Below, in pieces: positions 526 to 26,519 of a stretch of 33,844 bases of DNA. Below the pieces are notes generated by a model. The model searched no databases. It saw only the letters and a list, made by a program, of their open reading frames with translations, and was not told the DNA's origin. The stretch lies in IMG/VR virus record IMGVR_UViG_3300029042_000248. One strand, given 5' to 3'. Numbering within the stretch: the stretch's first letter is position 1; every line of letters starts with the position of its first letter. Position numbers and translations under genes: made by a program. This DNA is from a virus (lineage: Duplodnaviria; Heunggongvirae; Uroviricota; Caudoviricetes).

Positions 526-710
526 TTAAAATCCTAGTGATTTCAATAGAGACAAAATAAATTCATATAAAAATCATGCCGTTATATGAAATCATGGCAA
601 ATCCTTTCAAATCACTGTTGATTTGGAAGTGATTCCACACTACATTGCACGATATGCCGTGAGCTACTTTATAGCGTAGCTCACGGGGGAATCTGAAAGG
701 ATTACATGAA
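526..710. promoter_or_regulatory. Operator/divergent promoter region (Pc/Pe, repressor operators; also expected to act as the transposition enhancer)
   Basis: 185-bp AT-rich gap between divergent c and ner with several inverted repeats (e.g. aatcactgttgatt); function inferred from Mu biology. Confidence 0.6.
657..686. promoter_or_regulatory. Perfect 11-bp inverted repeat CCGTGAGCTAC-N8-GTAGCTCACGG; candidate Ner operator
   Basis: Arms 657-667 and 676-686 are exact reverse complements with an AT-rich 8-bp spacer, about 25 bp upstream of ner; matches my recollection of the D108 ner operator architecture. Confidence 0.55.
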
Positions 711-932
711 ATGCATATGAATAAAAGAACTAACCGCCAAGATTGGCACAGAGCTGACATCGTTGCAGAGCTACGAAAACGCAATATGTCACTAGCTGAA
801 TTGGGAAGATCTAATCATCTTTCGTCTTCAACATTAAAAAATGCTTTGGATAAGAGATATCCGAAAGCGGAGAAAATCATTGCAGATGCACTGGGAATGA
901 CACCGCAAGATATTTGGCCGTCTCGATACTAG
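711..932 (+). CDS. ner: Ner-family early transcriptional regulator (73 aa)
   Basis: Small HTH protein ([23 protein letters not shown]...IWPSRY) directly upstream of transposase A; alternative start at 717. Confidence 0.85.
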
Positions 933-939
933 GTGCGCT

Positions 940-2928: not shown

Positions 2929-2966
2929 TTAACGTTTAAACAAAATTTAATTACGAGGTTATTCAG

Positions 2967-3905
2967 ATGAATATTTCCGATATTCGCGCAGGACTGCGCA
3001 CGCTTGTAGAAAGTGAAAAAGCTACTTATGCACAAATTGCCCGCGAGTCCGGCGTGGCCGCAGGAACGTTAAGCGCATTCGTGAATAACAAGTACAACGG
3101 CGACAATGAACGTGTTGCGCAGACGCTGGAACGCTGGCTGGAGAACTATCACCGTGCCGCAGAGCTGCCAGAACCACCGCGTTTTGTGGAAACCAGAACA
3201 GCACGCCAAATCTGGACGAGTATGCGTTTTGCCAGTCTGACTGAAAGTATTTCTGTTATCTGCGGTAATCCAGGTGTGGGAAAAACTGAAGCGGCCCGCG
3301 AATTTCGTCGCACCAATAACAATGTCTGGATGATCACCATTACCCCATCCTGTGCCAGTGTTCTGGAATGCCTGACGGAACTGGCTTATGAACTGGGGAT
3401 GAATGACGCACCGCGCCGCAAGGGGCCACTCTCCCGCGCTTTGAGACGCCGCCTTGAAGGTACGCAGGGGTTGGTCATTATCGATGAAGCTGATCATCTT
3501 GGCGCTGAGGTTCTGGAAGAACTCCGCCTGTTACAGGAATCCGCCCGTATTGGCCTTGTTCTGATGGGGAATCACCGTGTTTATTCAAACATGACCGGTG
3601 GTAACAGAACGGTTGAATTTGCCCGCCTGTTTTCCCGTATTGCCAAACGGACGGCAATTAATAAAACCAAAATTGATGATGTAAAAGCCATTGCGGATGC
3701 CTGGCAAATTACCGGCGAAAACGAGCGGGAATTATTACAGCAGATTGCACAAAAACCAGGTGCGCTTCGCATCCTGAACCACTCGCTGCGCCTTGCGGCC
3801 ATGACCGCCCACGGCAAAGGTGAACGTGTTAATGAAGATTATCTGCGTCAGGCTTTCCGTGAATTAGACCTCGACGTTGATATTTCAACCCTGCTGCGCA
3901 CGTAA
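2967..3905 (+). CDS. B: Transposition ATPase / target DNA activator B (312 aa)
   Basis: Walker A GNPGVGKT and Walker B LVIIDEAD motifs; position immediately after A; 312 aa as in MuB. Confidence 0.95.
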
Positions 3906-3918
3906 GGAGAGCGAAATC

Positions 3919-4146
3919 ATGATGTCACGGAATATCAAAATGGCAACGGAAGTAAAGAGCTGGTTACAGGAGCGCGGCAGCCACGTCAACGAATCCTGGC
4001 TGGGCGTGGCCCGCCCGGTGCTTGAAATTACCTGCCCGCCACCGGAGCTGGTCAGAAACGCTGTCAGGATTATGGAGCATAAATCAGGGGTTGCCCGTTC
4101 CGTATGGACGGCCCGCCTTAATGGTTGCCAGATTATCTGGCGTTAA
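3919..4146 (+). CDS. Small early protein in the kil position (75 aa); possible Kil-like host division inhibitor
   Basis: First ORF after B with GGAG RBS and ATGATG start; assignment by position only. Confidence 0.4.
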
Positions 4147-4178
4147 TAACGGCTTATTTATTTGTGAGGAATAACAAA

Positions 4179-4448
4179 ATGGCAAAAGTAATCTTTGAAT
4201 TTAACCGCATGGAAGATGTTGAGTTTCAGAAAAAAGGAGGTTTCTTTGTAGGAATGAGTGTGCAACTGGAAGAACAGTCTCCTAAGGAGCAAACCGGACC
4301 GCATGACGTGATGGCAGGCATTATCAAGAGCATGGCTCCTGAAATTATTGAAAAAGCAACCCAGGAGTTGTTGAAGTCAGCCAGAGAACTTGGGCTGGAA
4401 GCCGAAGGCGAGTTATTCCGGTATAACCCGGATGCAGCCAAACATTAA
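4179..4448 (+). CDS. Hypothetical early protein (89 aa)
   Basis: ORF with upstream GAGGAA; starts MAKVIFEF; no recognisable motif. Confidence 0.4.
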   Translation: MAKVIFEFNRMEDVEFQKKGGFFVGMSVQLEEQSPKEQTGPHDVMAGIIKSMAPEIIEKATQELLKSARELGLEAEGELFRYNPDAAKH

Positions 4449-4464
4449 TTTCAGGGAAGGAGGC

Positions 4465-4755
4465 ATGATGATAATCACTCGCAAAAGATGGTCACGCGAA
4501 GACCGGGAATTTATCGAAGCCAGTGTCGGGAAAATGACCGTCGAGGAAATGGCGAAAAAACTGAACGTTGCCCCAACCGCCCTACAGGCACATGCCAGAA
4601 GGCACGGAATATCGTTGTGTGCATACCGGGTCAGTGAGCACGACAAATATTTGTGTCGTGAACTTTATAAAGAAGGGCTGGCTATTCATGTCATTGCCCA
4701 AAAGATGGAATTAAGCAATCGTGCTGTATCCAGCATTGTATACAGCGAATATTAA
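4465..4755 (+). CDS. Hypothetical early protein with HTH-like segments (96 aa)
   Basis: GAAGGAGG RBS then ATGATG; HTH-like segments (TVEEMAKKLNVAPTALQAHARRHG and LAIHVIAQKMELSNRAVSSIV). Confidence 0.4.
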   Translation: MMIITRKRWSREDREFIEASVGKMTVEEMAKKLNVAPTALQAHARRHGISLCAYRVSEHDKYLCRELYKEGLAIHVIAQKMELSNRAVSSIVYSEY

Positions 4756-4775
4756 TTAACAGGAGCTTTATTTAT

Positions 4776-5300
4776 ATGGCTAAACCAGCAAAACGAATCA
4801 AGAATGCCGCAGCGGCTTATGTTCCACAGTCCCGCGATGCCGTGGTATGTGATATCCGCCGGATTGGTGACCTGCAACGCGAAGCGGCACGACTTGAAAC
4901 GGAAATGAATGACGCTATCGCTGAAATTACAGAGAAATACGCCTCACAGATTGCGCCGCTAAAAACCAGTATCGAAACCCTTTCAAAAGGCGTTCAGGGA
5001 TGGTGTGAAGCGAACCGCGACGAACTGACGAACGGCGGCAAGGTGAAGACGGCGAACCTGGTAACCGGCGATGTGTCATGGCGTCAGCGCCCACCATCGG
5101 TAAGTATTCGCGGTGTGGATGCGGTGATGGAAACGCTGGAGCGTCTTGGCCTGCAACGCTTTATTCGTACGAAACAGGAAATCAACAAGGAAGCGATTTT
5201 ACTGGAACCGAAAGCGGTCGCAGGTGTCGCCGGAATTACAGTTAAATCAGGCATTGAGGATTTTTCTATTATTCCGTTTGAACAGGAAGCCGGTATTTAA
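4776..5300 (+). CDS. gam: Gam (host-nuclease inhibitor / DNA-end binding protein, 174 aa)
   Basis: Length equals Mu Gam as I recall it, position after kil-region ORFs, coiled-coil-rich sequence. Confidence 0.8.
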   Translation: MAKPAKRIKNAAAAYVPQSRDAVVCDIRRIGDLQREAARLETEMNDAIAEITEKYASQIAPLKTSIETLSKGVQGWCEANRDELTNGGKVKTANLVTGDVSWRQRPPSVSIRGVDAVMETLERLGLQRFIRTKQEINKEAILLEPKAVAGVAGITVKSGIEDFSIIPFEQEAGI

Positions 5301-5397
5301 TACCACTACAAATATTTAATTAATCCACTCTCTTTTAATTATGGCGCGATGCGTCAGGGGATTGCTCGCGCCTTATTCGACCATAAAGGATATTTAA

Positions 5398-5949
5398 ATG
5401 ACGAAATACGCCTATTTTAAGCTGTCTGATAAGACAAGCCGTATGTATATGAAACGCTGGGAGACAGATATTTATCCGGTTCGTGTAAAGCTTGTTCGTT
5501 CATTACAACGCGAACTTGGTGCTGCTGGCATCAGTCTTGTCAGAGGTCTGAAAGTTGCACGAGTGGAAAGCGTCTGGTTCGGGATGCAGCCGTCGGGGTT
5601 CTGGAAAGTAAAAAGCAGTAACCTTTTTGTTGATGGTTACCAGTTCTGGGAGGTTATGCCGGATGTAACGACAGTTCGGGGAAAAAAGAGAGAAAAGCTC
5701 ATCGCGGGATATGAAGAACAACTGACAAATTACCCTGAATTTTCAGTATGGCTGTGTAACGAACTGAATATTGATTTCACACTGAATATCTTTGATATCC
5801 GGTCTGTGTGGGAAATGTCATGGTCACGCGATAGGTTCAGCATTTTATTTAAAGTCCAGGTTTTTTCTGACGGTGAAGTGCATGGGCATATTCCTGCTGA
5901 ATGCCAGCGTATTAAACATTCTGAATTTGTGGCGCTGACGGAGGAATAA
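5398..5949 (+). CDS. Hypothetical protein (183 aa), AT-rich accessory cluster
   Basis: Long ORF in a markedly AT-rich segment; no recognisable motif. Confidence 0.5.
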   Translation: MTKYAYFKLSDKTSRMYMKRWETDIYPVRVKLVRSLQRELGAAGISLVRGLKVARVESVWFGMQPSGFWKVKSSNLFVDGYQFWEVMPDVTTVRGKKREKLIAGYEEQLTNYPEFSVWLCNELNIDFTLNIFDIRSVWEMSWSRDRFSILFKVQVFSDGEVHGHIPAECQRIKHSEFVALTEE

Positions 5950-5952
5950 CCG

Positions 5953-6186
5953 ATGTTTGTGATTGACTCAAAAGTTTTGAATGCTGTCAGCACATTACTA
6001 CGAACTCACGGACGTCTGACCTGTGGTGTTCTGGCGGACAAAATGAGAATGCCAGTCTCTGCAATGGTGTACTTCCTGCGTGATGCGGTTGATGCCGGAG
6101 TGCTCACCGAATGTAACGGATTTTATGACATCCCACGCTCCCGACCGACTCCGGCGGAAACACAGGAAATCAGCGAGCATGATTAA
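5953..6186 (+). CDS. Hypothetical small protein, possible winged-helix (77 aa)
   Basis: ORF 4 nt after the previous gene; helix-rich, winged-helix-like by eye only. Confidence 0.4.
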   Translation: MFVIDSKVLNAVSTLLRTHGRLTCGVLADKMRMPVSAMVYFLRDAVDAGVLTECNGFYDIPRSRPTPAETQEISEHD

Positions 6187-6376
6187 GTCACTTGGCTTTG
6201 TCCTGCTGGTTGGCACCTGTGGGAATGATGCCTGCGATGCCATTCCGGTAACGGAAAAAATCTGGCCCACAGAACAGGCATGTATGCAGGTGATGGAGCG
6301 CATACAAAAACGTTATCCCGGTGAAATCTTTTATTGCGAAGAGGTATTAAGAAATGAAAATACAGATGATTACTGA
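6179..6376 (+). CDS. Hypothetical small Cys-containing protein with hydrophobic N-terminus (65 aa)
   Basis: In-frame ATG at 6179 overlapping previous stop (ATGATTAA); MIKSLGFVLLVGTCGNDACD then two more Cys; possible signal peptide, imperfect lipobox. Confidence 0.35.
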   Translation: MIKSLGFVLLVGTCGNDACDAIPVTEKIWPTEQACMQVMERIQKRYPGEIFYCEEVLRNENTDDY

Positions 6377-6689
6377 TGCTGATTTAATGGCTGCAACCTT
6401 AATTTCCAGTGGCATGTCAGAACAAAAGGTAAATGATTTTCTGGATAATGTCGTATACCAACGCTATGAGCAGGCCAGAGAAAATTTAATTTCAGAAAAA
6501 CGCACGATGATTGCCGAATCATTAAGCCCAGCCTGGATTATTGAGGAATTACGAAAAATCACTGCCAGCCAGGATAAAGTAGCGGCAGTTGCCGCCCTCG
6601 ATGTGCTACAGCGAATGAGTAAAGAGCTATTCAACACTGAATTAATTTTTAAATCCGGGGGACAAAATGAGTCGCACATCGCTTATTAA
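6354..6689 (+). CDS. Hypothetical protein (111 aa)
   Basis: AT-rich ORF overlapping gemA start; no recognisable motif. Confidence 0.45.
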   Translation: MKIQMITDADLMAATLISSGMSEQKVNDFLDNVVYQRYEQARENLISEKRTMIAESLSPAWIIEELRKITASQDKVAAVAALDVLQRMSKELFNTELIFKSGGQNESHIAY

Positions 6690-7218
6690 GTTAATTCATG
6701 TCGCCCGTCGTGATCTACAACTCGACGATGACACTTACCGCGCCTTTCTGGTGCAGTGCACGGGCAAAACCAGTTGCCGCGAGCTGTCCGTTGCACAACT
6801 GGAACAAGTGCTCGATGCCATGAAAGAGCGCGGTTTTAAAAAGCAGAATAAACATCCCCGCCGTCGCTTTAAGGGGCATGTCACACCGCGCGAGAAGATT
6901 TATAAAATCTGGCAGCAGATGTTTCTTGATGGTTTCGTCTCCGATATCAGCGACGCTGCGCTGGACAAATACGTTGAACGCCTGACGGCCAGACGTAATG
7001 GCGGTCAGGGTGTTTCCACGCTGGCCTGGTGTCACGGGGAATCGTTGCAGGTTGTGCTCGAAACGCTCAAACAGTGGCATATGCGCTGCATCCGTGAAGC
7101 CTTTGCCCGACATGGTGTGCCTTTACCTGTAAGCCCATCCGGGCGGGAACTGCGCGGCTATGATGCACTGACCAGTGCATATGCCCGCGCACGAAACAGC
7201 GGGAGAATTGCTGTATGA
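6667..7218 (+). CDS. gemA: GemA-like protein (183 aa)
   Basis: Size matches Mu GemA as I recall it; immediately upstream of and translationally coupled (ATGA) to the Mor-family gene. Confidence 0.7.
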   Translation: MSRTSLIKLIHVARRDLQLDDDTYRAFLVQCTGKTSCRELSVAQLEQVLDAMKERGFKKQNKHPRRRFKGHVTPREKIYKIWQQMFLDGFVSDISDAALDKYVERLTARRNGGQGVSTLAWCHGESLQVVLETLKQWHMRCIREAFARHGVPLPVSPSGRELRGYDALTSAYARARNSGRIAV

Positions 7219-7664
7219 AACAGATGAAAGAGCAGGATTTATTCGAAGACTTCCGGGACGACAGCGTTCTGGAATACCTTAACGATTACCAGGAAAACAC
7301 GGCTTATCCGGCGTTACTTTCTGAACTGAACGCACTGCTGCGTAAAGAACTGGCCCGGATTGGCGCAGACCCTGCCCATTCCCTTGAGCTGGTTGTGGCG
7401 ATTTGTCGCCATATCGGCGGGATGCAGGTTTATGTTCCGAGGGGGAATATTCTGGAGAATCTTGTCCGGGATATGCGTATCTGGCGTGATTTTAACGGCC
7501 ATAATATTCCTGAACTGGTTCAGCGTTACAGAGTGACGTATAAAACCGTCTACAAGGCCATCAAACGGATGCGGCGTCTGGAGCGTAATAAATACCAGCC
7601 GGATTTGTTCTACCACTCCCCGAACCTGCCTCACCCCGTTCGTCGTCCGCCACGACGCCCTTAA
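7215..7664 (+). CDS. mor: Mor/C-family transcriptional activator (149 aa)
   Basis: C-terminal region GGMQVYVPRGNILENLVRDMRIWRDFNGHNIPELVQRYRVTYKTVYKAIKRMR typical of the Mor/C family; position after gemA. Confidence 0.8.
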   Translation: MKQMKEQDLFEDFRDDSVLEYLNDYQENTAYPALLSELNALLRKELARIGADPAHSLELVVAICRHIGGMQVYVPRGNILENLVRDMRIWRDFNGHNIPELVQRYRVTYKTVYKAIKRMRRLERNKYQPDLFYHSPNLPHPVRRPPRRP

Positions 7665-7668
7665 TCAA

Positions 7669-7694
7669 TGAAGCCGGTAAATCCGGCTTTTTTT
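7669..7694 (+). terminator. Palindrome+T7 element, copy 1 (tgaAGCCGGtaaatCCGGCTttttttt): candidate intrinsic terminator and/or activator-binding site of a late promoter
   Basis: 7-bp stem, 5-nt loop, then 7 T; the identical 26-mer recurs at 15382-15407. Confidence 0.6.
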
Positions 7695-7749
7695 ATGCCT
7701 CCGGCACCATGAAGCAGACCACGTTTAAATCTGCTTCACAGGTGCTTTT

Positions 7750-8346
7750 ATGGAAAATCAAAAATTCTCCCCGGCCTTTGAACATGCGCTGAATTTTATT
7801 CTGCGTCCTGATATCGAAGGCGGCTATGTCAATGACCCCACTGACCGTGGCGGCGAAACAAAATACGGCATTTCTGACCGCCGCGACGGTGTGATTGACG
7901 GCAAAACCGATGTCAACGGCGACGGCAAACCAGATACCCGCATTAAGGATTTGACCCGCGAACAGGTTGCGCAGATTTACTGGCGCGATTACTGGCTGCT
8001 TGCCGGGTGTGATCAGTGGCCTGATGGTGTGGCGCTCTTTGTGTTTGATGCGGCTGTTCAGCATGGCGTGGAGCAAGCCGTCAAGTTTTTACAGGAAGCC
8101 GCTGATGTGTCTGCCGATGGCATCATCGGCCCGCGTACCCGCAAGGCTGTGAGCCTGTCCACCCCGGACTGGCTGCTGTCCCGCTGCATTGTTCGCCGTT
8201 GCCGCTTTTATGCGGGCCTCATCAAATCAAAACCCGCTCGTGGCAAATACCTGAACGGCTGGTTTAACCGCATGGAAGAACTGACCGACGCCTGTCTGGA
8301 AATCATCGATACCCCTCTGGGCATCATGTCCGCCACGCGGGGGTGA
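7750..8346 (+). CDS. Endolysin, glycoside hydrolase family 108-like with C-terminal peptidoglycan-binding region (198 aa)
   Basis: N-terminal motif FEHALNFILRPDIEGGYVNDPTDRGGETKYGIS characteristic of GH108 lysins; no N-terminal TM/SAR segment. Confidence 0.75.
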   Translation: MENQKFSPAFEHALNFILRPDIEGGYVNDPTDRGGETKYGISDRRDGVIDGKTDVNGDGKPDTRIKDLTREQVAQIYWRDYWLLAGCDQWPDGVALFVFDAAVQHGVEQAVKFLQEAADVSADGIIGPRTRKAVSLSTPDWLLSRCIVRRCRFYAGLIKSKPARGKYLNGWFNRMEELTDACLEIIDTPLGIMSATRG

Positions 8347-8347
8347 T

Positions 8348-8575
8348 ATGGGCAAAGGCTGGGACGCCTCACTGAAAGCCGGGCGGCGTGACCGCCTGCG
8401 CCAGGAGGTTCTGCACCGCATGGCCGGAGGTCCGCCCCCGAAACCGCTGGACTATACCGGCCATGATGGCACACACGCCAGCTACTACATGCGTGGCTGG
8501 AACTCCGTGGATACACGGGACATTTTCTGGCAGTGCCAGAAGTACAAGGAAAAACTCAATGCACAGAATGAATAG
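8348..8575 (+). CDS. Hypothetical small protein (75 aa)
   Basis: ORF starting 2 nt after the endolysin stop; no motif recognised. Confidence 0.4.
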   Translation: MGKGWDASLKAGRRDRLRQEVLHRMAGGPPPKPLDYTGHDGTHASYYMRGWNSVDTRDIFWQCQKYKEKLNAQNE

Positions 8576-8969
8576 TCTTTTTGTTCGCGTTATTTACTCC
8601 CGCTTTATGTTGTGCCAGTGGTCGTTTCTGGGACTGTCGGCAGTACTTTTTCTGGCGAGCTGTTTTGCCGGATGGCGGGCGTTTGCGGTCATGGTGCTGG
8701 CATACGGCGCGACACTCTGCCTGATTCACAGTTTCCAGCTGGGCAACGTACCTTATCGCCTGCAGCCCAAAAGGCGTTTCCGGGCCGCCTCCCTTCGAAT
8801 TGTCGTGTGGTCATGGGTGGTCTGGGCCGTTGGTTTTTTCATGCTGACATTCGGCATTCTTTATCTGAAGGAGCCTTATCAGCTGGCGTTCTGGCTGGGC
8901 GGTATTTTTTGCGCGGCACTTTATAAACATCAGCGCCGTTTTCATAAGGGGGATTCATGGATCCGTTAA
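8559..8969 (+). CDS. Hypothetical integral membrane protein, ~4 predicted TM segments (137 aa)
   Basis: In-frame ATG at 8559 (alt 8568) within listed ORF 8388-8969; four long hydrophobic stretches. Confidence 0.5.
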   Translation: MHRMNSLFVRVIYSRFMLCQWSFLGLSAVLFLASCFAGWRAFAVMVLAYGATLCLIHSFQLGNVPYRLQPKRRFRAASLRIVVWSWVVWAVGFFMLTFGILYLKEPYQLAFWLGGIFCAALYKHQRRFHKGDSWIR

Positions 8970-9565
8970 CCCTTTCAGGCATCGCCTCTGTTCTGCTGAA
9001 AGCCGGGCCGGGGCTGATTCGTTCCGTCGGGCGCTGGTTTGGTGGCAGTACATCTGCCGCCGCTGACTCGGTGGCCGGTATGGTGGAAAGCGTCCGGGAA
9101 AGCCTGCCGGTGGCTGAACAGCAGCGCGTTCTGGAACAAAAGCTGGTGATGTTGTCACCGGAACAACTGATGCAACTGGAAACCCTGAAAGTGCAGTTGC
9201 AACAACTGGCGGTGGAACGGCAGAAGCTGGTGCTGGCTGACCAGCAGGCTTCGCACCACGAACAGCAGGAAACCATCCGCAATGGTGACAACGCCACGGA
9301 CAGCTATGTGCGCCAGACGCGCCCGCTGCTGGCGCGCCTTTCCTGTTACAGCAGTCTGGCCTATGTGCTGTTGCTCTCCTGCGGCCAGATTGCCGGAGCC
9401 ATTGCCGGTGCCAGCGGTATCACGCTGCATATGCCATCACCGGACTGGGATATCACGCTGATGTTGCTTACCCCGGCACTGGGCTATCTCGGCGTAAGAA
9501 CCGTTGACGGTTTTGCCCGTTACAGCAAGTCAAGCAAGGACAAAATATCTGCGGGGCCGAAATGA
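8957..9565 (+). CDS. Hypothetical coiled-coil protein with hydrophobic C-terminal segments (202 aa); possible lysis or membrane-associated function
   Basis: Central Q/L-rich coiled coil, C-terminal hydrophobic stretches. Confidence 0.4.
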   Translation: MDPLTLSGIASVLLKAGPGLIRSVGRWFGGSTSAAADSVAGMVESVRESLPVAEQQRVLEQKLVMLSPEQLMQLETLKVQLQQLAVERQKLVLADQQASHHEQQETIRNGDNATDSYVRQTRPLLARLSCYSSLAYVLLLSCGQIAGAIAGASGITLHMPSPDWDITLMLLTPALGYLGVRTVDGFARYSKSSKDKISAGPK

Positions 9566-9789
9566 CCGACGAAATCGACCGCATCAGTGAAGTGGTTCTG
9601 AACGAACGTCAGAGCGTCGTTAAAGCCTGGCAGACACGGACAAAAGAAGCGCCCCACAGCCGGGGCTTCTGCAATGACTGCGGGAACGTTATTCCGGCAC
9701 AGCGCCTTGCGGCGCTGCCGGATGTGGTGACCTGTATTGACTGTCAGCAGATACGGGAACACAGGAGGAAATCGTGTCCTGGGAAATGA
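9562..9789 (+). CDS. TraR/DksA-family C4 zinc-finger protein (75 aa)
   Basis: CNDCGNVIPAQRLAALPDVVTCIDCQ = C-x2-C-x17-C-x2-C. Confidence 0.75.
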   Translation: MTDEIDRISEVVLNERQSVVKAWQTRTKEAPHSRGFCNDCGNVIPAQRLAALPDVVTCIDCQQIREHRRKSCPGK

Positions 9790-10079
9790 TCAGAGCCAAC
9801 TGGCCCATTCTGTGGGCATTGCTGATGACGGGAATAAACCTGCTTCAGCTGATTCTGGCAAAGACCTACGTCAAACGCGAAGAGTTTGATTTGCTGCGTT
9901 CCCGCGTGTCGGTGATGGAAAGCCAGGTACATCAGCTACCTGATCGTGATGAGTTCCACCGCCTGCAACTGGATATCAGCAACCTGCGGGGAGAAATCAA
10001 AGAGCTGGGGCCATCCATCCGCCAGGTATCCCGCATCAGCGATTTGTTATTAGAGAACGAGTTAAAGGAAAAAAATTAA
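9774..10079 (+). CDS. Membrane-anchored coiled-coil protein (101 aa), Mu gp25/DUF2730-like by architecture
   Basis: N-terminal TM (WPILWALLMTGINLLQLILA) followed by coiled coil. Confidence 0.45.
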   Translation: MSWEMIRANWPILWALLMTGINLLQLILAKTYVKREEFDLLRSRVSVMESQVHQLPDRDEFHRLQLDISNLRGEIKELGPSIRQVSRISDLLLENELKEKN

Positions 10080-10372
10080 TGGCGATGAAAGAGATCCTCA
10101 CTGAAGACCGTCGTCTGGTGTTGCTGCGTTCCCTGCTGGATTGTGGCGACAGCGCGAATGAATCCGTGTTGCAGACCTGCCTTCAGGCCTACGGTCATAA
10201 GGTATCCCGTGATGTGGTGCGCACCCAGCTTGCATGGCTGCGCGAGCAGGGGCTGGTTCGTCTGTCTGATGTGGGCGGCTGTTACGTGGCTGAAATCACC
10301 GGCAGCGGTGAGGATGTGGCAAACGGCCTGTCCAGCGTTCCGGGCGTTAAAAAACCCCGTGCGAGGGACTGA
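10079..10372 (+). CDS. Hypothetical protein (97 aa)
   Basis: ORF coupled to neighbours; helix-rich. Confidence 0.45.
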   Translation: MAMKEILTEDRRLVLLRSLLDCGDSANESVLQTCLQAYGHKVSRDVVRTQLAWLREQGLVRLSDVGGCYVAEITGSGEDVANGLSSVPGVKKPRARD

Positions 10373-10374
10373 GC

Positions 10375-10674
10375 ATGGCCCGAAAACTGAAGCCGTTAAG
10401 TCGCGGAGAACGGGCCGTCGTGCGGCAGCTGGCGTACTGTCTTGTGCTCGCGGATATTGAGAAAAACGCCATCGCCCGTGCATATGAACAACAGACCGGA
10501 AAGCCCTGGAACCCGGATGCACCGGATACCCCCATGAAACGTGCCCTGCGTTCATCACCGGCATGTGCGCGGCTGTGGAAGCTGCTGGGTAAGGATATCC
10601 GCTCCGTTCGCGAAGAAATATACGCCGGTCTGAAAACACCGGGAACTGAAGACGGGGGCCGTCGTGAACCGTAA
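10375..10674 (+). CDS. Hypothetical protein (99 aa)
   Basis: ORF coupled to neighbours; basic. Confidence 0.45.
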   Translation: MARKLKPLSRGERAVVRQLAYCLVLADIEKNAIARAYEQQTGKPWNPDAPDTPMKRALRSSPACARLWKLLGKDIRSVREEIYAGLKTPGTEDGGRREP

Positions 10675-10811
10675 AAAGAATCCGATAAGTAAAGCGTCCC
10701 GTGATGAACTCCGCCGTCTGGCGCACAACCTGACATGGCGGGAAATCCAGAACGGCGCACTGAAATCTGCATACGAAAGTTTACAGCGTAGTGAGCAACA
10801 GGAGCGCACAC

Positions 10812-11243
10812 ATGGAAAATGAACAACGCCCCACCCGTGGCCGTCTTTCCAAAGTGGATTTACTCCCGGACAGCATCCGGGAGCAGTTGCATCAGATGCT
10901 GCGGGAAAAGCGGCACACGCAGGAAGAAATCCGCGAAGCCATCAACGCCCTGATTGACGAACACAACCTGCCGGAAGAGATGCAGTTAAGCCGGACGGGC
11001 TTAAACCGCTATGCCATCCGCATGGAAAAAGTCGGGGCCAAAATCCGCGCCTCCCGCGAAATGGCCGAAGTCTGGGCGGCAAAGCTGGGTTCCGCGCCAA
11101 CATCAGACGTCGGCAAGCTGCTGATGGAGTTTGTAAAAACGCTGGCCTTTGAAACGTCCATGTCGATGGCAGAAGACGACAAACCTGTTGCACCGAAGGC
11201 GCTGGGCCAACTGGCGCTGGTTGCCCAGCGTCGGCAGCCATGA
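10812..11243 (+). CDS. Putative terminase small subunit / DNA-binding packaging protein (144 aa from ATG 10812)
   Basis: Immediately upstream of the large terminase; AGGAG RBS before ATG 10812 (the track starts at GTG 10791); assignment by position. Confidence 0.4.
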   Translation: MENEQRPTRGRLSKVDLLPDSIREQLHQMLREKRHTQEEIREAINALIDEHNLPEEMQLSRTGLNRYAIRMEKVGAKIRASREMAEVWAAKLGSAPTSDVGKLLMEFVKTLAFETSMSMAEDDKPVAPKALGQLALVAQRRQP

Positions 11244-11386
11244 CCAGCCATAAACGCGAAAAAGCGATCCGCGATGCGTTTGCGCAGGAGATGGCAGAGA
11301 AAACCGAAGAACTGGTCAGAACGGGCGGTCTGTCAGGTGGTGCGGCTGACACCATCAAACGTGAAATTCTGGGGATTAGCGCATGA
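11240..11386 (+). CDS. Small ORF (48 aa) bridging the putative small and large terminase genes
   Basis: ATG overlaps previous stop (ATGA) and its stop overlaps the large-terminase ATG; below the track size cutoff, read manually. Confidence 0.3.
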   Translation: MTSHKREKAIRDAFAQEMAEKTEELVRTGGLSGGAADTIKREILGISA

Positions 11387-12918
11387 CACAGATGAACACG
11401 TTCAGTGAATACGATGTTCTGCTGCCGTATCAGAAACGCTGGGTGGCGGATGATGCCGACCTGAAAATCGCCGAGAAATCCCGCCGTACCGGTTTAACCT
11501 GGGCGGAAGCTGCGGATGCGGCACTGACGGCATCACTGAAGAAGGAAGACGGCGGGCGCGATCACTTTTATATCGGTTCGAATAAGGAGATGGCCCGCGA
11601 ATTTATCGACGCCGTGGCGATGTGGGCGAAAGCGTTTAATGCGGCAGCGGAAGAAATCTGCGAGGAAGTGATCACCGACGAAGACAAGGACATTCTGACG
11701 TTCGTCGTGTACTTCGCCAGCGGTTTTAAGGTCAAGGCACTGTCCAGCAACCCGAGCAACATTCGCGGGATGCAGGGGAATGTCACCATCGACGAGGCCG
11801 CGTTCCATGAAAAACTGGACGAACTGCTGAAGGCCGTGCTGCCGCTGAAAACATGGGGCGGCAAAATTCGCCTTATTTCCACCCATGACGGCGTGGACAA
11901 CCTGTTTAACCAGCTGATTCAGGAAAGCCGCGCGGGCAAAAAAGATTACAGCATTCACACCATCACGCTGGACGACGCCTGCAATGACGGGCTGTACCGG
12001 CGTATCTGTCAGGTGCGCGGCATGGTGTGGTCACCGGAAGCCGAGGCGGAATGGAAAGAAGGCCTGCTGCGAAATACCGCCACCCGCGAAGACGCACTGG
12101 AGGAATATTACTGCGTCCCGAAAAACGGCGGCGGCACGTATATCCCCCGCTCACTGCGTGAACGTGCGGCCCGTGGCACCGGAAAAGTGTTGCGCTTTAC
12201 CGGCACACCGGAATTTAACGCACTGACGGAAAGTCAGCGCCGGGCAGATATCCGGGAATGGCTGGAAACAGTGGTGCGCCCCGAGCTGGAAAAACTCCCG
12301 CAGAACCTGCGCCACTGTCTGGGGGAAGACTTTGCGCGTTCGGGTGACCTGACCGTACTGGCCCCGGTGACGGTGAACGATGACACCACCCGCGAGGTGC
12401 CGTTCCTGGTTGAGCTTGGCAATGTGCCGTTTAAACAGCAGGAGCAGGTGCTGTTCTGGCTTTGCGATCGTCTGCCCCGTCGTGACGGTATCAAAATGGA
12501 TGCGCGGGGGAATGGTCAGTATCTGGCAGAACAGGCGGCGGAGCGGTACGGCGACGAAGTGGAACAGGTGATGCTGTCCGTGGCGTTCTACCGCGAAAAC
12601 ATGCCCCGGTTCCGTGCGGCGTTTGAAGATGATGAGCTGATCCTTCCGAAGCATGAAGACGTGATCAATGACCTCGGGGCCATTCAGTTACTGCGTGGCG
12701 TTCCCGGCATTGATGATTCACGAACCAAAGGCAGCGACGGTCACAAACGTCACGGCGACGCCGCTGTGGCCATTTTCCTGGGCTTCCTTGCCAGCAAGGA
12801 TGACTGCCACCGTTACGAACTGCACCGCCTGAACCGCCCGGCGAAACCGGAAGAACGCAACGCGCGCCGCCAGATGAAGCTGACGCGCGGCCTGAAAAAT
12901 GAGGGAGGTTTACTGTGA
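11383..12918 (+). CDS. Terminase large subunit (511 aa)
   Basis: Size and position before the portal; overall resemblance to Mu-type large terminases from memory. Confidence 0.8.
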   Translation: MTQMNTFSEYDVLLPYQKRWVADDADLKIAEKSRRTGLTWAEAADAALTASLKKEDGGRDHFYIGSNKEMAREFIDAVAMWAKAFNAAAEEICEEVITDEDKDILTFVVYFASGFKVKALSSNPSNIRGMQGNVTIDEAAFHEKLDELLKAVLPLKTWGGKIRLISTHDGVDNLFNQLIQESRAGKKDYSIHTITLDDACNDGLYRRICQVRGMVWSPEAEAEWKEGLLRNTATREDALEEYYCVPKNGGGTYIPRSLRERAARGTGKVLRFTGTPEFNALTESQRRADIREWLETVVRPELEKLPQNLRHCLGEDFARSGDLTVLAPVTVNDDTTREVPFLVELGNVPFKQQEQVLFWLCDRLPRRDGIKMDARGNGQYLAEQAAERYGDEVEQVMLSVAFYRENMPRFRAAFEDDELILPKHEDVINDLGAIQLLRGVPGIDDSRTKGSDGHKRHGDAAVAIFLGFLASKDDCHRYELHRLNRPAKPEERNARRQMKLTRGLKNEGGLL

Positions 12919-14486
12919 ACCTGAAACAACTGGCCGGGGCCGTTCGCCGTCTGCTGAACCCGGCAACCGGTGAGGAAGACACGCTGAAAAAAGAGGCGCT
13001 CAACGAAGCACAGGCCCGTCCGCGTCATGCCGGTGTGCGTTCGGCCTCGCCGGGTATCAGCGTCGCCTCCGGGCTGAACCCCGGCAGGCTGGCAGGCATT
13101 CTGCGCAATGCTACTGACGGCATCACGCGTGATTTTTTTATCCTTGCTGAAGAGATGGAAGAACGCGATTTGCATTACGCCTCGGTACTGCGCACCCGCA
13201 AGCTGACGGTGGCGGGTATCGAACCGGTGGTGGTGGCCGCCAGTGATGACGATGCTGACGTGCAACTGGCGGACGCCATCCGTGCACTGATGGAGGCACC
13301 GCAAATCCCTGAGCTGATGTTTGATCTGCTCGACGGGCTGGGAAAAGGCGTGGCGGTCTGTGAAATTTTGTGGAACACCCGCAACAACCACTGGGTGCCC
13401 CGTGATTATGAGTGGGTTGATCCCCGTTTTCTGAAAGCTGAAAAGCCCACGCTGCGTCAGTTCCGCCTGCTGACGGACGATGAACCGGTGGATGGCGTAC
13501 CGCTGACACCGGGAAAATTCATTGTTCACCAGCCGCGTCTGAAATCCGGTCTGCCGCTGCGTAATGGTCTGGCCCGTCTGGTGGCGGTGATGTACATGCT
13601 GAAATCCTTTACCGTGCGCGACTGGTGGGCATTTGCGGAAAAATTCGGCATTCCGGTTACGGTGGGGAAATACGGTCCCAACGCCACGGAGGAGCAAATC
13701 CGCGTGCTGATTGATGCGATTGCCTCCATTGCCTCGGATGCCGGGTGTGCTATTCCGCAGTCCATGCAACTGGAGATGAAGGAAACCGCCAGCAGGAATA
13801 ACGGCGGCGCACTGTTCCGTGAAATGGCGGAATGGTGCGATGCGCAAATCAGTAAAGCCGTGCTGGGGCAGACCATGACCACGGATAACGGCAGTTCGCG
13901 TTCACAGGCGGACGTGCACAATCAGGTGCGCATGGACATTGTGCGCTGGGACGCGCGGCAACTGGCTAACACGCTGAATGAATATCTGGTACGCCCCTAC
14001 ATTGAGGCCAACTACGGGCCACAGGCGCACTACCCCCGTGTTGTTCTGCGTATCAGTGAAGCGGAAGATTTGAAGGCGCTGACAGACGCTCTGGTGCCAC
14101 TGATTGACCGGGGGATGCGGGTTCAGGAATCGGAGCTGCGGGACCGGTTCGGCCTGGCTGAACCGGACGACGGGGCTGATGTTCTGCATCCGGTGTCTGC
14201 CGGAATGTCAGGTGATGTGGCGATGAACCGCGAGCGCGTCGCCCTGAACCGGGAACACCCCGATGAACTGGCACAGATGGTGGATGATGCCCTGCGTGAC
14301 TGGCAGAAAACCGGCGAGGCGTTCACGAACCCGGTGCTGACACTGGCGCAGGAATGCGACAGTTTTGATGACTTTCTGAAACGCCTGCCTGAGCTTCAGG
14401 AAACGCTGAACGCGGACGACTTTGCCCTGCAACTGGCGGAGGTGTGCTTTAAGGCGCGTGCGCTGGGGGACACTGCTCATGCGTGA
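12915..14486 (+). CDS. H: Portal protein, Mu gp29-like (523 aa)
   Basis: Size and position between terminase and F-like gene. Confidence 0.8.
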   Translation: MNLKQLAGAVRRLLNPATGEEDTLKKEALNEAQARPRHAGVRSASPGISVASGLNPGRLAGILRNATDGITRDFFILAEEMEERDLHYASVLRTRKLTVAGIEPVVVAASDDDADVQLADAIRALMEAPQIPELMFDLLDGLGKGVAVCEILWNTRNNHWVPRDYEWVDPRFLKAEKPTLRQFRLLTDDEPVDGVPLTPGKFIVHQPRLKSGLPLRNGLARLVAVMYMLKSFTVRDWWAFAEKFGIPVTVGKYGPNATEEQIRVLIDAIASIASDAGCAIPQSMQLEMKETASRNNGGALFREMAEWCDAQISKAVLGQTMTTDNGSSRSQADVHNQVRMDIVRWDARQLANTLNEYLVRPYIEANYGPQAHYPRVVLRISEAEDLKALTDALVPLIDRGMRVQESELRDRFGLAEPDDGADVLHPVSAGMSGDVAMNRERVALNREHPDELAQMVDDALRDWQKTGEAFTNPVLTLAQECDSFDDFLKRLPELQETLNADDFALQLAEVCFKARALGDTAHA

Positions 14487-15243
14487 AACCCTCATCCCGA
14501 AAGAGGCGCTGGCGTGGCTGAAGGCGAAGAAGCTGCGCCCCGGTTTTGATTACCGGGATGTATGGCGGGAAGAGCACCGGAACAGCTTCACCGTGGCAAA
14601 AATGCTGCAACTGGATTTGTTGTCGGATGTGAAAGCCCTTGTGGAAGACGCCCTGCAAAGCGGGCAGACGTTCAGCGAGTTCCGGGAGGCGCTGCAACCG
14701 CTGCTGATAAAACGCGGATGGTGGGGCGTTCAGGAGATGGATGATCCGCTGACGGGCGAAAGGCGCACCGTGCAACTGGGCAGCGACCGCCGCCTCCGCA
14801 CGATTTTTGATACCAACATGCGCACCGCCCGCGCGGCGGGCCAGTGGGAACGCATTCAGCGGACAAAGCGGGCCATGCCGTATCTGATTTACGAGCTGGG
14901 ACCATCCCGCGAGCACCGGGCGGAGCATGTGAAATGGGCGCGTCTGTGTCTGCCGGTAGATCATCCGTTCTGGCAGACGCATTTCGCCCCTAACGGCTGG
15001 GGCTGCAAATGCACCATCCGTCAGGTCAGCCGTGGTGAATATGCGCAACTGGCGGCACAGGGCACCATTCACACCGAAGCGCCGGAAATCAGAACTGTCC
15101 GCTGGGTGAACAAACGCACGGGCGAAGAGGAAGAGGTGCCGGAAGGGATTGATCCGGGCTGGAACTACAATCCCGGTATAAACCGTGAGCAGGAGCTGGC
15201 ACGCCAGCTGGCGACAAAACAGGCCCGTTTTGACAGTGAGTAA
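14479..15243 (+). CDS. F: Head morphogenesis protein, Mu F-like (254 aa from ATG 14479)
   Basis: In-frame ATG at 14479 overlapping the portal stop; conserved region HVKWARLCLPVDHPFWQTHFAPNGWGCKCTIRQVSR resembles the Mu F family. Confidence 0.75.
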   Translation: MRETLIPKEALAWLKAKKLRPGFDYRDVWREEHRNSFTVAKMLQLDLLSDVKALVEDALQSGQTFSEFREALQPLLIKRGWWGVQEMDDPLTGERRTVQLGSDRRLRTIFDTNMRTARAAGQWERIQRTKRAMPYLIYELGPSREHRAEHVKWARLCLPVDHPFWQTHFAPNGWGCKCTIRQVSRGEYAQLAAQGTIHTEAPEIRTVRWVNKRTGEEEEVPEGIDPGWNYNPGINREQELARQLATKQARFDSE

Positions 15244-15271
15244 CCCTCCCGCCGTAAATCCCCCTGAAACG

Positions 15272-15299
15272 CATCAGAAACGCGTTTTTTATTCTGATG
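15272..15299 (+). other. Hairpin (8-bp stem catcagaa/ttctgatg) in the F-I intergenic region
   Basis: Exact reverse-complement arms 15272-15279 and 15292-15299; loop contains ACGCGT. Confidence 0.5.
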
Positions 15300-15319
15300 G
15301 CGTGAATGTGCATTCTGAC

Positions 15320-15360
15320 GTTTTTGAAGATGCTGTGGCGTTTTTGAAGGGGTTTTGAAG
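15320..15360 (+). repeat. Three direct copies of GTTTT(T)GAAG in the F-I intergenic region
   Basis: gtttttgaag at 15320-15329 and 15340-15349, gttttgaag at 15352-15360. Confidence 0.6.
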
Positions 15361-15381
15361 GGGGTATTTCCCCGTTTTCAG

Positions 15382-15407
15382 TGAAGCCGGTAAATCCGGC
15401 TTTTTTT
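15382..15407 (+). terminator. Palindrome+T7 element, copy 2 (identical 26-mer to 7669-7694)
   Basis: Exact repeat of tgaagccggtaaatccggcttttttt; followed by TGCCTTCCGCA (copy 1 has TGCCTCCGGCA). Confidence 0.6.
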
Positions 15408-15456
15408 CTGCCTTCCGCATACTGACCGTCGGTAACCCCAAACGACGGAGACTGAC

Positions 15457-16419
15457 ATGCAACCGGAACTGCTGGCGCTGTGTTTTTCCCTGCCAGAACC
15501 CATCCCTGAGCTGACACCTGCTCAACTGCCGGAATGGCTTGAACTCGTCCCTGCGGGTGAGTTCACCGGGCGCGATGGCCGGACGTGGATTAACCGCAAT
15601 CCGCATGAGGTGGTCACCCGCTCGTCCGACATCAAAATTCCGGTGGACATTGAACACGCCACCGAAATTAAAGGGCAACGCGGTGATGAAGCCCCGGCGT
15701 ATGGCTGGGTGGAAGAACTGCGCGTGACGGACAGCGGCACCATTGAAGGCCGTGTTGTCTGGAGCGAGTACGCCCGGTGGATGCTGAGCGAACGCCGCTA
15801 CCGCTATTACAGCCCGGCGTTTTTCTTTGACGCAGACGGTGTGGTGACGCGCCTGTCCAGCGTCGGGCTGACCAACAAACCTAACCTGGACTTTCCTGCA
15901 CTGAATACGGAGAAAAACCCGATGACAGTACCTGTGCAAATCACCGGCCTGCTTGGGCTGGCTGAATCTGCCACGGTGGACGATACCGTGGCCGCCATTA
16001 AACAACTTCAGGAGAACGAACAGGTGGCGCTGAACCGCGCACAGACACCTGACCTGACGAAGTTTGTGCCGGTGGAAACCCACAATCTGGCACTGAACCG
16101 TGCCGAAACCGCAGAACAACGCCTTCAGCAACTGGAAGAGAAGGAAGCAGAAGCGCTTGTGGATGCGGCCATCGAAGCCGGAAAAGTGGCCCCGGCAAAC
16201 CGTGACATGTTCCTTGCCACCTGCCGCACGGAAGAAGGCCGCAAACAGTTTGCGGAATACACCAAAGGTGCACAGCCGCTGGTGAACAACGACAAGCCCA
16301 GCCAGGGCAAGGATAAACCCGCGCAGACACTGACCGACGCCGAACTGGCGATGTGCCGCAGCATGGGTATTACCGGGGAAGAGTTCCTCGCCGCTAAACC
16401 TAAACAGGAGAATAACTGA
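15457..16419 (+). CDS. I: Head protease / scaffold protein, Mu I-like (320 aa)
   Basis: Position before the major head gene; C-terminal coiled-coil region; GGAG RBS 6 nt upstream. Confidence 0.75.
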   Translation: MQPELLALCFSLPEPIPELTPAQLPEWLELVPAGEFTGRDGRTWINRNPHEVVTRSSDIKIPVDIEHATEIKGQRGDEAPAYGWVEELRVTDSGTIEGRVVWSEYARWMLSERRYRYYSPAFFFDADGVVTRLSSVGLTNKPNLDFPALNTEKNPMTVPVQITGLLGLAESATVDDTVAAIKQLQENEQVALNRAQTPDLTKFVPVETHNLALNRAETAEQRLQQLEEKEAEALVDAAIEAGKVAPANRDMFLATCRTEEGRKQFAEYTKGAQPLVNNDKPSQGKDKPAQTLTDAELAMCRSMGITGEEFLAAKPKQENN

Positions 16420-17398: not shown

Positions 17399-17402
17399 AG
17401 TC

Positions 17403-25992: not shown

Positions 25993-26519
25993 ACGCCATT
26001 GCCCGCCGTCTGCGGCTGCTGGTTGATCGTGCCGTTGTCCGCATGGTGTCTGACAGTCTGGAGCGGCAGAACCTGCAAATCCAGACGCTGGCAGATGCCA
26101 CTGACGACGACGTGGAACGCTTCCAGAACTACGGGTTTACTTCCGTTCCGCCGGAAGGTTCTGAAGCCATTGTGCTGGCCGTTGGCGGACGGCGTGACGG
26201 GCTGGTTGCCATCGCGGTGGAGGACAAGCGATGTCGCCCGAAAGGACTGTCCCCCGGCGATGTCCGGCTTTATCACCGGGACGGCAAATCACACATCACC
26301 CTGAAGGAAAACGGCGTCATTGAAATCACAGGAGAACAATTAAACGTTTCAGGGAAAACGGTAAATCTCACCGCCGACGAATTGCTGAATATTATCGGTA
26401 AACAAATGAAATTCGTCGGTCCCTGTGAATTTACTGAAGATGTCAGAATTAACGGTAAATCATTCAGCGAACACATTCATAAGGACGGCGACAATGAGAA
26501 TACATCACCGCCCGTATGA
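25983..26519 (+). CDS. Q: Baseplate spike / assembly protein, Mu gp45-like (178 aa from ATG 25983)
   Basis: In-frame ATG at 25983 overlapping the P stop; the track ORF 25707-26519 runs upstream only because no stop intervenes. Confidence 0.7.
   Translation: MGLNAIARRLRLLVDRAVVRMVSDSLERQNLQIQTLADATDDDVERFQNYGFTSVPPEGSEAIVLAVGGRRDGLVAIAVEDKRCRPKGLSPGDVRLYHRDGKSHITLKENGVIEITGEQLNVSGKTVNLTADELLNIIGKQMKFVGPCEFTEDVRINGKSFSEHIHKDGDNENTSPPV

Follow-up and report, generated by a model that had tools for sequence, protein, structure and literature searches.

Genes at the mor locus

The window (the whole 33,844-nt stretch of viral DNA analysed here, IMG/VR record IMGVR_UViG_3300029042_000248) carries at 7215..7664 a gene for a Mor-type transcription activator of 149 amino acids; this and the other features whose coordinates are written with two dots below lie on the plus strand. 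The product matches the Pfam Mor family (PF08765, E=1.4e-30) over profile positions 3-107 of 107, scoring 105.9 bits against a cutoff of 24.9, and shares 61% identity with Mor of phage Mu and 33% with Mu C. [quoted passage not shown] Its recognition helix reads TVYKAIKRMRR, compared with TVYKAIRRMRR in Mu Mor and QIYQIIARQRK in C. The preceding gene, as in Mu, encodes a homologue of GemA (gp16; 6667..7218; PF06252, E=1.3e-32) that is 82% identical to Mu GemA, and the early region is Mu-like, A, B, and gam being ~90% identical to those of Mu. Judged by its identity, its synteny with GemA, and its recognition helix, 7215-7664 is the Mor orthologue, and mor, right after gemA, closes the early operon.

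[quoted passage not shown] The window's Mor has an exact QPDLF at residues 128-132, which by comparison appears to be of the clamp-binding type, followed by a 17-amino-acid Pro/Arg tail, whereas Mu Mor ends in QPSLL; at the N-terminus only the DLF core is present (EQDLF), the same as in Mu Mor. A chimeric origin of the protein from Mu and Kp4866 types was considered and set aside: with ~60% identity to either type in the N-terminal half, the sequence shows no clean junction.

An earlier note, made from the sequence alone, had named this protein as the only one with a Mor/C signature and had seen none in the small open reading frames (ORFs) downstream, and both statements hold in every frame of the window. 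Pfam scans of the other 29 ORFs gave no Mor/C match and PHROGs scans of ten small ORFs added none; in tblastn searches of the whole window with Mu Mor and Mu C, 7215-7664 alone matched (next best E>0.2), as it did (E=1e-68; next best E=2.1) when a Mor/C profile HMM built on 13 sequences was run against all 633 stop-to-stop fragments of the six frames. Beyond the window, a single Mor/C gene was likewise all that turned up in the whole prophage of a 96%-identical Escherichia coli relative, STEC1575 (L001+L003), and in Klebsiella phage Kp4866-3 (OK490420), searched as a complete genome record; none of the three has the separate C gene that Mu carries in its Mor-dependent middle operon. Ten further Enterobacterales relatives (L005-L014), from six genera, encode a Mor 66-71% identical to the window's and have one Mor/C gene within 10 kb of mor. 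In a phage collection, 14 of 50 records have two Mor/C places; among the records listed, those with two are Mu, D108, SfMu, or a Yersinia Mu-like phage, and all other phages listed have one. Most Mu-like phages have a single Mor/C gene.

The gene after mor, beginning 86 nt beyond it, is indeed the endolysin that the earlier note had proposed: 7750..8346 carries a GH108 domain (PF05838, E=3.4e-24) and a PG_binding_3 domain (PF09374, E=1e-15), and is the first gene of a predicted lysis and packaging operon, termed P1. Just 3' of it, within what is here a late operon, lies a homologue of gp18 (8348..8575; 70% identity to Mu gp18; phrog_2121), the first gene of the Mu middle operon; that operon is therefore partly retained, only gp19, gp20, and C being missing. 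Further along are a TraR/DksA-type zinc-finger protein (9562..9789; PF01258, E=1.2e-11; phrog_54) and a gp26-like protein (10079-10372; 61% identical to Mu gp26) with weak HTH and faint winged-helix matches. TraR/DksA proteins act on RNA polymerase, and the 9562-9789 product is possibly a modulator of the polymerase made from the P1 operon; a conserved protein of this type could add to late control, a point against a purely two-tier model. The gp27-like gene has a 7-bp frameshift in this copy and is intact in the 96%-identical relative, so this copy may be non-viable as a phage. The head protease/scaffold gene (15457..16419), a homologue of Mu I and the first gene of a second predicted operon, P2, is annotated as a phage protease in the 96%-identical relative, where the major head gene gpT is next.

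Mor-type elements ahead of late genes

As a reference, the landmarks of the Mu middle promoter Pm were placed on the Mu sequence from published KMnO4-sensitive positions, the footprint, the -57G and -54A mutations, and the dyad at -51..-36 (PMC4287176, PMC4390567). The mapped Mor-binding site, AGTAAAGCCGGTTAAT, spans -51 to -36 of Pm (PMC4287176, PMC4390567); by our placement +1 is Mu 9224, the -10 hexamer TATCCT lies at 9211-9216, and the Mor site at 9173-9188. A Pm-type promoter was taken to combine a 16-bp Mor site, centred ~43.5 bp before the start, with a recognisable -10 and to lack a -35. By sequence this combination occurs three times in the window, at P1, P2, and P3, with 13, 14, and 11 matches, respectively, to the 16 positions of the Mu site and with 23, 23, and 24 nt from site to -10 hexamer (23 nt in Mu).

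The predicted Mor site of P1, AATGAAGCCGGTAAAT (7667..7682), aligns with -51..-36 of Mu Pm and is kept in 10 relatives (nhmmer, E 1e-15 to 5e-19). It overlaps a hairpin, GAAGCCGGTAAATCCGGC, followed by T7 (7670..7694), the palindrome and T-run upstream of the endolysin in the earlier note. The element is real: terminator scan and folding identify an intrinsic terminator closing the early operon, 5 nt past mor, with an 8-bp stem (dG -12.6 kcal/mol, z -3.4) and the structure of the hairpin that follows mor in Mu. The idea that the palindrome is itself the Mor dyad was rejected once the published Pm positions had been placed on Mu; the 16-bp Mor site corresponds to the left arm and loop, which makes the hairpin a terminator in its own right that overlaps the site. 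A candidate -10 hexamer, CACCAT (7705..7710), without a -35, is spaced as TATCCT is in Mu and predicts a start at ~7718; in relatives the hexamer at this offset is CAAAAT, CACTAT, or CACAAT. The transcript would begin with a leader stem-loop (7711..7737, dG -10.6 kcal/mol), a position at which relatives have a stem-loop of differing sequence. In its Mor site, T-tract, -10, and equal spacing, P1 is to all appearances a near-copy of Mu Pm.

The P1 element is repeated exactly over 25 nt at 15383-15407 (0 such repeats expected by chance), and the likeness stretches to 49 nt at 86% identity. In this repeat lie the predicted Mor site of P2, AGTGAAGCCGGTAAAT (15380..15395), and an overlapping hairpin with T7 (15383..15407; 8-bp stem, dG -12.6 kcal/mol) that would terminate the P1 operon. 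The -10 hexamer CATACT (15418..15423), again without a -35, predicts a start at ~15431, and a leader stem-loop folds at 15426-15448. The -10 elements of P1 and P2 are weak (CACCAT, CATACT), which speaks against a two-tier model. The P2 sequence CCGCATACTGAC aligns with CCGCAAACTGAC of PI, a C-dependent promoter of Mu, as does the leader hairpin; since the core promoters resemble each other, only the upstream activator site differs. No C-type site was found 5' of the endolysin or protease gene, where the element is Mor-type and not the CATAAyCCC-type of Mu Plys and PI.

The relatives and Kp4866-3 have the window's gene order between gemA and the head gene, and its P1 and P2 sites as well. A site at the P2 position is present in nine of the ten relatives, the sequence of L013 ending before that position; the P2 site itself is kept in six of them (L005, L007-L010, L014) and in Kp4866-3, reading GGGAAAGCGGTTAAT in L007-L010 and Kp4866-3. 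L009, L010, and Kp4866-3 have lost the right arm of the P2 hairpin and the T-run and retain the Mor half-site and the -10 at their spacing, suggesting that the conserved function in these three is that of a promoter and not of a terminator.

A candidate third site, P3 (AGGGAAAACGGTAAAT, 26351..26366), lies inside the baseplate V gene, followed after 24 nt by a possible weak -10, TATTAT (26390..26395), without a -35 and ~120 nt upstream of the start of a gp46-like gene at 26516; it has no hairpin. The pattern GAARRCGGTWAAT has four matches, with 0.2 expected. The P3 site recurs in STEC1575 and in Kp4866-3, the one genome checked at this position among Kp4866-3 and L005-L014. Synonymous positions at P3 are constrained: in 15 diverged V genes, Gly is GGG and Asn is AAT in all 15, and Val is GTA or GTT only. 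With 11/16 matches, a spacing 1 nt longer, and a location within coding sequence, P3 is less certain as a Mor-type site. The predicted P2 operon, at 17 kb, is long for a single internal booster, and this too counts against the two-tier model. Two other candidates were taken as chance matches, one in the terminase gene (11628-11640) with no -10 at the right spacing and one with three mismatches (10388-10403) in ordinary coding sequence.

A search of the window and of the right arm of the STEC1575 prophage, the stretch upstream of com-mom included, with an nhmmer profile made from 18 elements gave no further site. The STEC1575 com-mom promoter, which lies outside the window, lacks a Mor-type site and is C-type in look, so at least one late function is not explained by Mor. 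A sigma-70 consensus scan of 3800-17500 gave three sites, all in the early region, with 7.9 expected, and none in the F-to-protease gap or elsewhere in the late stretch.

A predicted two-tier cascade and its alternatives

In Mu, the textbook case, expression runs in three steps: early genes, Mor activating the middle promoter, and C activating the late promoters. Here a single Mor/C gene is followed directly by late genes, and we consider it likely that the window comes from a Mu-like transposable prophage of E. coli with a two-tier lytic cascade, early to Mor to late. The early operon (ner, A, B ... gemA, mor) would end at the hairpin and T7 past mor. From the gene content, sites, spacing, and conservation described above we infer binding, activation, and timing by Mor: as the last early product, it would bind the Pm-type site overlapping the left arm and loop of the hairpin and bring sigma-70 RNA polymerase to a weak -10 without a -35, starting the P1 operon of endolysin, gp18-like, and holin-like genes, homologues of gp25-27, terminase, portal, and F. 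The second terminator-promoter cassette would close this operon, and Mor, acting again, would start the head and tail operon P2 at the protease gene; P3 probably boosts the distal baseplate and tail-fibre genes. Relative to Mu, the middle and lys operons would be fused and the C step gone, with Mor-type sites at the positions of promoters that C serves. The suggestion in the earlier note that the Mor-like protein activates late promoters directly thus gains good in silico support from the P1, P2, and P3 sites and from their conservation in relatives with no C gene within 10 kb of mor.

A three-step cascade would be kept if a second-tier activator outside the Mor/C family, made from the P1 operon, acted at P2 and P3 in place of Mor or alongside it; we regard this as improbable. 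The candidates would be the TraR/DksA zinc finger, the gp26-like protein with its weak HTH matches, or an unannotated small ORF. All relatives with a single Mor, and Vibrio phage martha, keep the TraR/DksA-type protein, which has no homologue among the Mu early-to-gp27 proteins compared, but proteins of this type, to our knowledge, bind no DNA sites, and gp26 is present in Mu, where C does the job. No motif peculiar to P2 and P3 emerged, and since the Mor-type site of P2 equals that of P1, exactly over 25 nt, no new DNA specificity is needed at P2.

There is still less to recommend the view that the palindrome and T7 are a terminator or insulator cassette spread by duplication, with Mor acting at P1 alone and head and tail genes reached by read-through or from ordinary promoters. 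Both copies do fold as canonical terminators and their -10 hexamers are poor, but a terminator between operons would stop read-through, and the sigma-70 scan offers no ordinary promoter in the late stretch. Moreover, it is the hairpin and T-run of P2 that L009, L010, and Kp4866-3 have lost, not the spacing of Mor half-site and -10, and P3 shows synonymous constraint without any hairpin. Finally, a decayed prophage that lost C by deletion, its late genes silent or reliant on the C of a helper Mu, would accord with the frameshifted gp27-like gene and with the C-type look of the relative's mom promoter, but is very improbable given that gp27 is intact in the 96%-identical relative, that the layout without C recurs in 10 prophages of six genera and an isolated Klebsiella phage, and that the late promoters carry Mor-type, not C-type, sites.

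For the two-tier arrangement we offer an evolutionary reading that is tentative and about which we are somewhat more doubtful than confident: a single Mor-type activator may be ancestral in transposable phages, the Mu cascade arising by duplication of mor to give C and by a swap of activator sites on homologous late core promoters. Here a single activator would act on both a reusable terminator-promoter cassette and an intragenic promoter held in synonymous sites of the V gene, and the QPDLF clamp motif could give the replication-linked delay that Mu obtains from C. The site-swap part is consistent with P2 and Mu PI sharing a -10 and leader hairpin and differing in the upstream site.

The window provides concrete predicted promoter sites for a Mor orthologue in E. 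coli itself, a host in which the full set of Mu genetic tools works. With its Mu-like early region and Mu-homologous core promoters, it is a convenient system for asking how rewired activator sites add or remove a regulatory tier and whether a clamp-binding motif sets late timing. The gain is incremental and the arrangement adds to a known kind, since earlier work on SuMu and Mannheimia phages recorded that C is missing, and the idea of a missing middle step in such phages is likewise published (PMC4553209).

Comparison with Mu and other transposable phages

In Mu, as in the window, the early operon closes with gemA and then mor, and the two recognition helices are nearly identical. Mu Pm resembles P1 in its Mor site, overlapping hairpin and T7, T-tract, -10 position, and lack of a -35; however, Pm drives gp18-gp19-gp20-C, whereas P1 would drive the endolysin, the gp18 homologue, and then packaging genes, and the element occurs once in Mu and two or three times in the window. 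The C system of Mu offers an analogy, with a small Mor/C-family activator near -43.5 and promoters without a -35 ahead of lysis, head, and tail blocks. The -10 region and leader hairpin of P2 are homologous to those of Mu PI, but the activator sites are Mor-type in the window (GAAGCCGGTAAAT) and C-type in Mu (e.g., CATAACCCCAG at PI). Unlike Mu, the window has no C gene, Mu C finding its 33% identity in the single ORF 7215-7664.

Kp4866-3 and the ten relatives differ from the window in a small extra ORF between mor and P1, in several P2 elements without a terminator hairpin, and in a GemA only 39-52% identical to the window's. Vibrio phage martha has the window's layout, with a hairpin and T-run before the protease gene; no motif shared with the window could be defined by eye.

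C has been reported missing in Mannheimia phages 3927AP2 and phiMhaMu2 and in Haemophilus phage SuMu (PMC4553209), and in Burkholderia phage KS10 mor lies directly before structural genes (PMC2628397). Like the window, these phages have a single mor followed directly by a GH108 lys gene or by structural genes, but the Mu-like early region of the window sets it apart from them. The papers on those C-less phages name no binding sites or late promoters, whereas in the window predicted Mor-type sites have been located and are conserved.

The Mor/C gene complement

The window is a transposable, Mu-like prophage. Its leftmost gene encodes the repressor c (1-525, minus strand) and is followed by the early genes ner, transposase A, B, kil, a gp9-like gene, and gam, in that order, and then by the genes for GemA (6667-7218), Mor (7215-7664), and a GH108 endolysin (7750-8346). 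Small lysis genes and genes of unknown function, and after them gp25-, gp26-, and gp27-like genes, separate the endolysin from the large terminase (11383-12918), beyond which lie portal, F, protease I (15457-16419), and, 3' of the protease, the major head gene and then the tail, baseplate, and fibre genes.

The earlier note had proposed that this prophage encodes one Mor/C-family activator, and this was confirmed by several searches. The open reading frame (ORF) at 7215-7664 matches Pfam Mor (E = 1.4e-30), and neither a second Mor/C match nor any other recognizable late activator emerged when 30 ORFs were scanned with Pfam and ten small ORFs with PHROGs; the only regulator-like finds were the gp9-type "D5-like" regulator, which is also present in Mu, and a TraR/DksA zinc finger. 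When the six frames of the window were compared by tblastn with the Mor and C proteins of Mu, this ORF was the sole match (61% identity to Mu Mor and 33% to Mu C; next match E > 0.2). A Mor/C profile HMM built from 13 sequences and run on all 633 stop-to-stop fragments found it at E = 1e-68, the runner-up having E = 2.1. Nor does a second gene appear outside the window in related genomes, as one Mor/C gene each is present in the complete prophage of E. coli STEC1575, a 96%-identical relative that ends in com-mom, and in the complete record of Klebsiella phage Kp4866-3 (OK490420).

In Mu, mor is separated from lys by gp18, gp19, gp20, and C, whereas the endolysin of the window starts 86 nt 3' of mor. 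The absence of C and the position of the endolysin next after mor therefore hold as first described. The middle operon is not wholly gone, however: the ORF directly 3' of the endolysin (8348-8575) is 70% identical to Mu gp18, and its position after the endolysin indicates a fusion of the Mu middle operon with the lys operon, not a simple deletion of the former.

The Mor-like protein carries an exact C-terminal QPDLF, where Mu Mor ends in QPSLL. QPDLF is a clamp-binding motif needed for MuC function and is the reported family consensus (PMC12867686). We infer that coupling to replication through this motif could take the place of an additional regulatory tier in delaying late expression. A 17-aa Pro/Arg-rich tail (YHSPNLPHPVRRPPRRP), found in the E. 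coli lineage only, extends the protein beyond QPDLF (7610-7664); its presence coincides with the loss of a small ORF that other genera have between mor and the downstream promoter. A TraR/DksA-type C4 zinc-finger gene (9562-9789) lies in the late operon; no single-Mor relative lacks it, Vibrio phage martha has it too, and its product has no homologue among the Mu early-to-gp27 proteins compared. This protein may modulate host RNA polymerase in late development.

Early proteins (A, B, kil, gp9, and gam) share 85-93% identity with those of Mu, GemA 82%, and Mor 61%, with late-gene products far lower, and GC content climbs from 41-52% in the early part to 56-61% later. The prophage is a mosaic, close to Mu over 1-7700 and, from mor onward (7700-33844), of sharply lower Mu identity and higher GC; no clean mosaic junction was found within mor. 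Prophages 90-96% identical over 6600-11400 are carried by at least 46 of 5,426 complete E. coli genomes. The RefSeq annotation of the STEC1575 prophage, which sits in the pdu region, lists the same genes. In that prophage the gp27-like gene is intact (193 aa); the window's copy (gp27/DUF3486, small-terminase-like, 10791-11386) is broken into ORFs of 150 and 48 aa because a 7-bp deletion (CTGGAAG, junction near 11232-11243) causes a frameshift relative to STEC1575. Packaging may be defective in the window copy; alternatively, the 7 bp may have been lost through misassembly of the sequence. Beyond the first fibre gene and its associated assembly gene lies a tail-fibre-like ORF of 1,037 aa (30134-33247), within which a 255-nt sequence is directly repeated (30929-31183 and 32108-32362, 83% identical).

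Predicted Mor-type promoters

According to published data on Pm, the middle promoter of Mu, the Mor site spans -51 to -36, the bottom-strand T residues at -12, -4, -1, +1, +3, and +4 are sensitive to KMnO4, and mutations affect -57G and -54A (PMC4287176, PMC4390567). The Mu sequence agrees with all of this only when +1 is set at Mu 9224; the -10 hexamer TATCCT then falls at 9211-9216 and the Mor site, AGTAAAGCCGGTTAAT, at 9173-9188. This site forms the left arm and loop of a hairpin followed by seven T residues, located 3' of mor. Its counterpart in the window is AATGAAGCCGGTAAAT (7667-7682), where the palindrome and T-run noted earlier between mor and the endolysin proved real: an 8-bp hairpin with T7, as in Mu (dG -12.6 kcal/mol), and CACCAT (7705-7710) in the exact place of Mu TATCCT. 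By comparison with Mu, the element is a predicted Pm-type promoter overlapping a terminator (P1), 5' of the lysis and packaging operon.

A second copy (P2) precedes the head protease gene. GAAGCCGGTAAATCCGGCTTTTTTT recurs exactly at 15383-15407, within the 214-nt F-protease gap; no such match arose in 100 shuffles, and similarity between P1 and P2 spans 49 nt. The predicted P2 site (15380-15395) is followed by CATACT (15418-15423) at the same 23-nt spacing as in P1. The core, CCGCATACTGAC, with its leader stem-loop, aligns with the Mu C-dependent promoter PI (CCGCAAACTGAC and stem-loop), but the sequence 5' of this shared core is a Mor-type site in the window and C-type in Mu. Activator sites thus appear to have been swapped on a common core promoter.

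Mu has its strong gyrase site in the G-I gap, the equivalent of the F-protease gap. Three GTTTTTGAAG-like repeats and a palindrome, GGGGGTATTTCCCC, lie at 15300-15375 in the window, and relatives have TTTTAAAC repeats in this gap; those at 15300-15375 are a possible gyrase-site counterpart.

Scanning the window with the core pattern GAARRCGGTWAAT (at most one mismatch) gave four matches against 0.2 expected: P1, P2, one in the terminase gene, and one in the baseplate V gene (26354-26366). The terminase-gene match has no -10 and was taken as chance. The full site in the V gene (P3) is AGGGAAAACGGTAAAT (26351-26366), with TATTAT 24 nt 3' of it (26390-26395) and the next gene about 120 nt further; it is also found in STEC1575 and Kp4866-3. 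Among 15 V genes, each less than 90% identical in protein, the Gly codon at P3 is GGG in all 15, compared with 0-5 of 15 at other conserved Gly columns, the Val codon is only GTA or GTT, and the Asn codon is always AAT. At the middle residue T, A, S, R, and K all occur, with xCG retained in about half of the lineages. This codon bias indicates selection at the DNA level, so P3 is counted as a likely third Mor-type site, less certain than P1 and P2. The -10 hexamers of the predicted promoters are weak.

Conservation and a putative one-activator cascade

In a genome scan, ten loci were found to encode a Mor of 66-71% identity; they come from Pluralibacter, Raoultella, Klebsiella, Serratia, Kluyvera, and Brenneria. 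In all ten, the 10 kb around mor hold a single Mor/C gene, the genes from GemA through the head gene follow an identical order, and P1 is strongly conserved (nhmmer E values of 1e-15 to 5e-19), with a small additional ORF between mor and P1. P2 occupies the equivalent position in nine; the sequence of the tenth (L013) stops before that position. The P2 hairpin is retained in three loci (L006, L011, and L012), and its right arm and T-run are gone in L009, L010, and Kp4866-3, where GGGAAAGCGGTTAAT and the -10 (GACACTG) are still correctly spaced. The conserved function of P2 is therefore probably that of activator site and -10, not termination. Each transcript predicted from P1 or P2 opens with a stem-loop located at its predicted start or immediately 3' of it, in the window (7711-7737 and 15426-15448) as in the relatives (L005-L015) and at Mu PI. 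The stem sequences differ from lineage to lineage, and the leader could be a conserved 5' stabilizing or regulatory hairpin.

The earlier proposal that the Mor-like protein activates late promoters directly is supported by these sequence comparisons. Early transcription would stop at the hairpin 3' of mor; Mor would bind P1, P2, and probably P3, recruiting sigma-70 RNA polymerase as Mu Mor does at Pm. Starts are predicted near 7718 for P1, 15431 for P2, and about 26403 for P3. Because starts would fall 3' of the T-run, the terminators would insulate operons and leave Mor-started transcripts unaffected; the C tier would be absent. The com-mom promoter of STEC1575 (L003 11372-11500, outside the window) is an exception, resembling the Mu C-dependent Pmom in sequence and spacing and having a GATC cluster; it has no Mor-type site, in a prophage that also lacks a C gene.

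Comparison with known Mu-like phages

Two Mor/C places were found in 14 of 50 records of a phage collection; among those listed, the two-place records all belong to Mu, D108, SfMu, or a Yersinia Mu-like phage, and the remaining listed Mu-like phages have one each. The lys gene directly follows mor in Mannheimia phages 3927AP2 and phiMhaMu2 and in Haemophilus phage SuMu, for which middle genes such as C were concluded to be absent and experiments were called for (Niu et al. 2015; PMC4553209). In KS10, likewise, the protease gene lies immediately 3' of mor (PMC2628397). The gene-content observation of a single mor and no C is thus already known in other Mu-like phages, and its novelty is modest. 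New here are the location and conservation of the predicted Mor-type late promoters and the apparent exchange of activator sites on a core shared with Mu.
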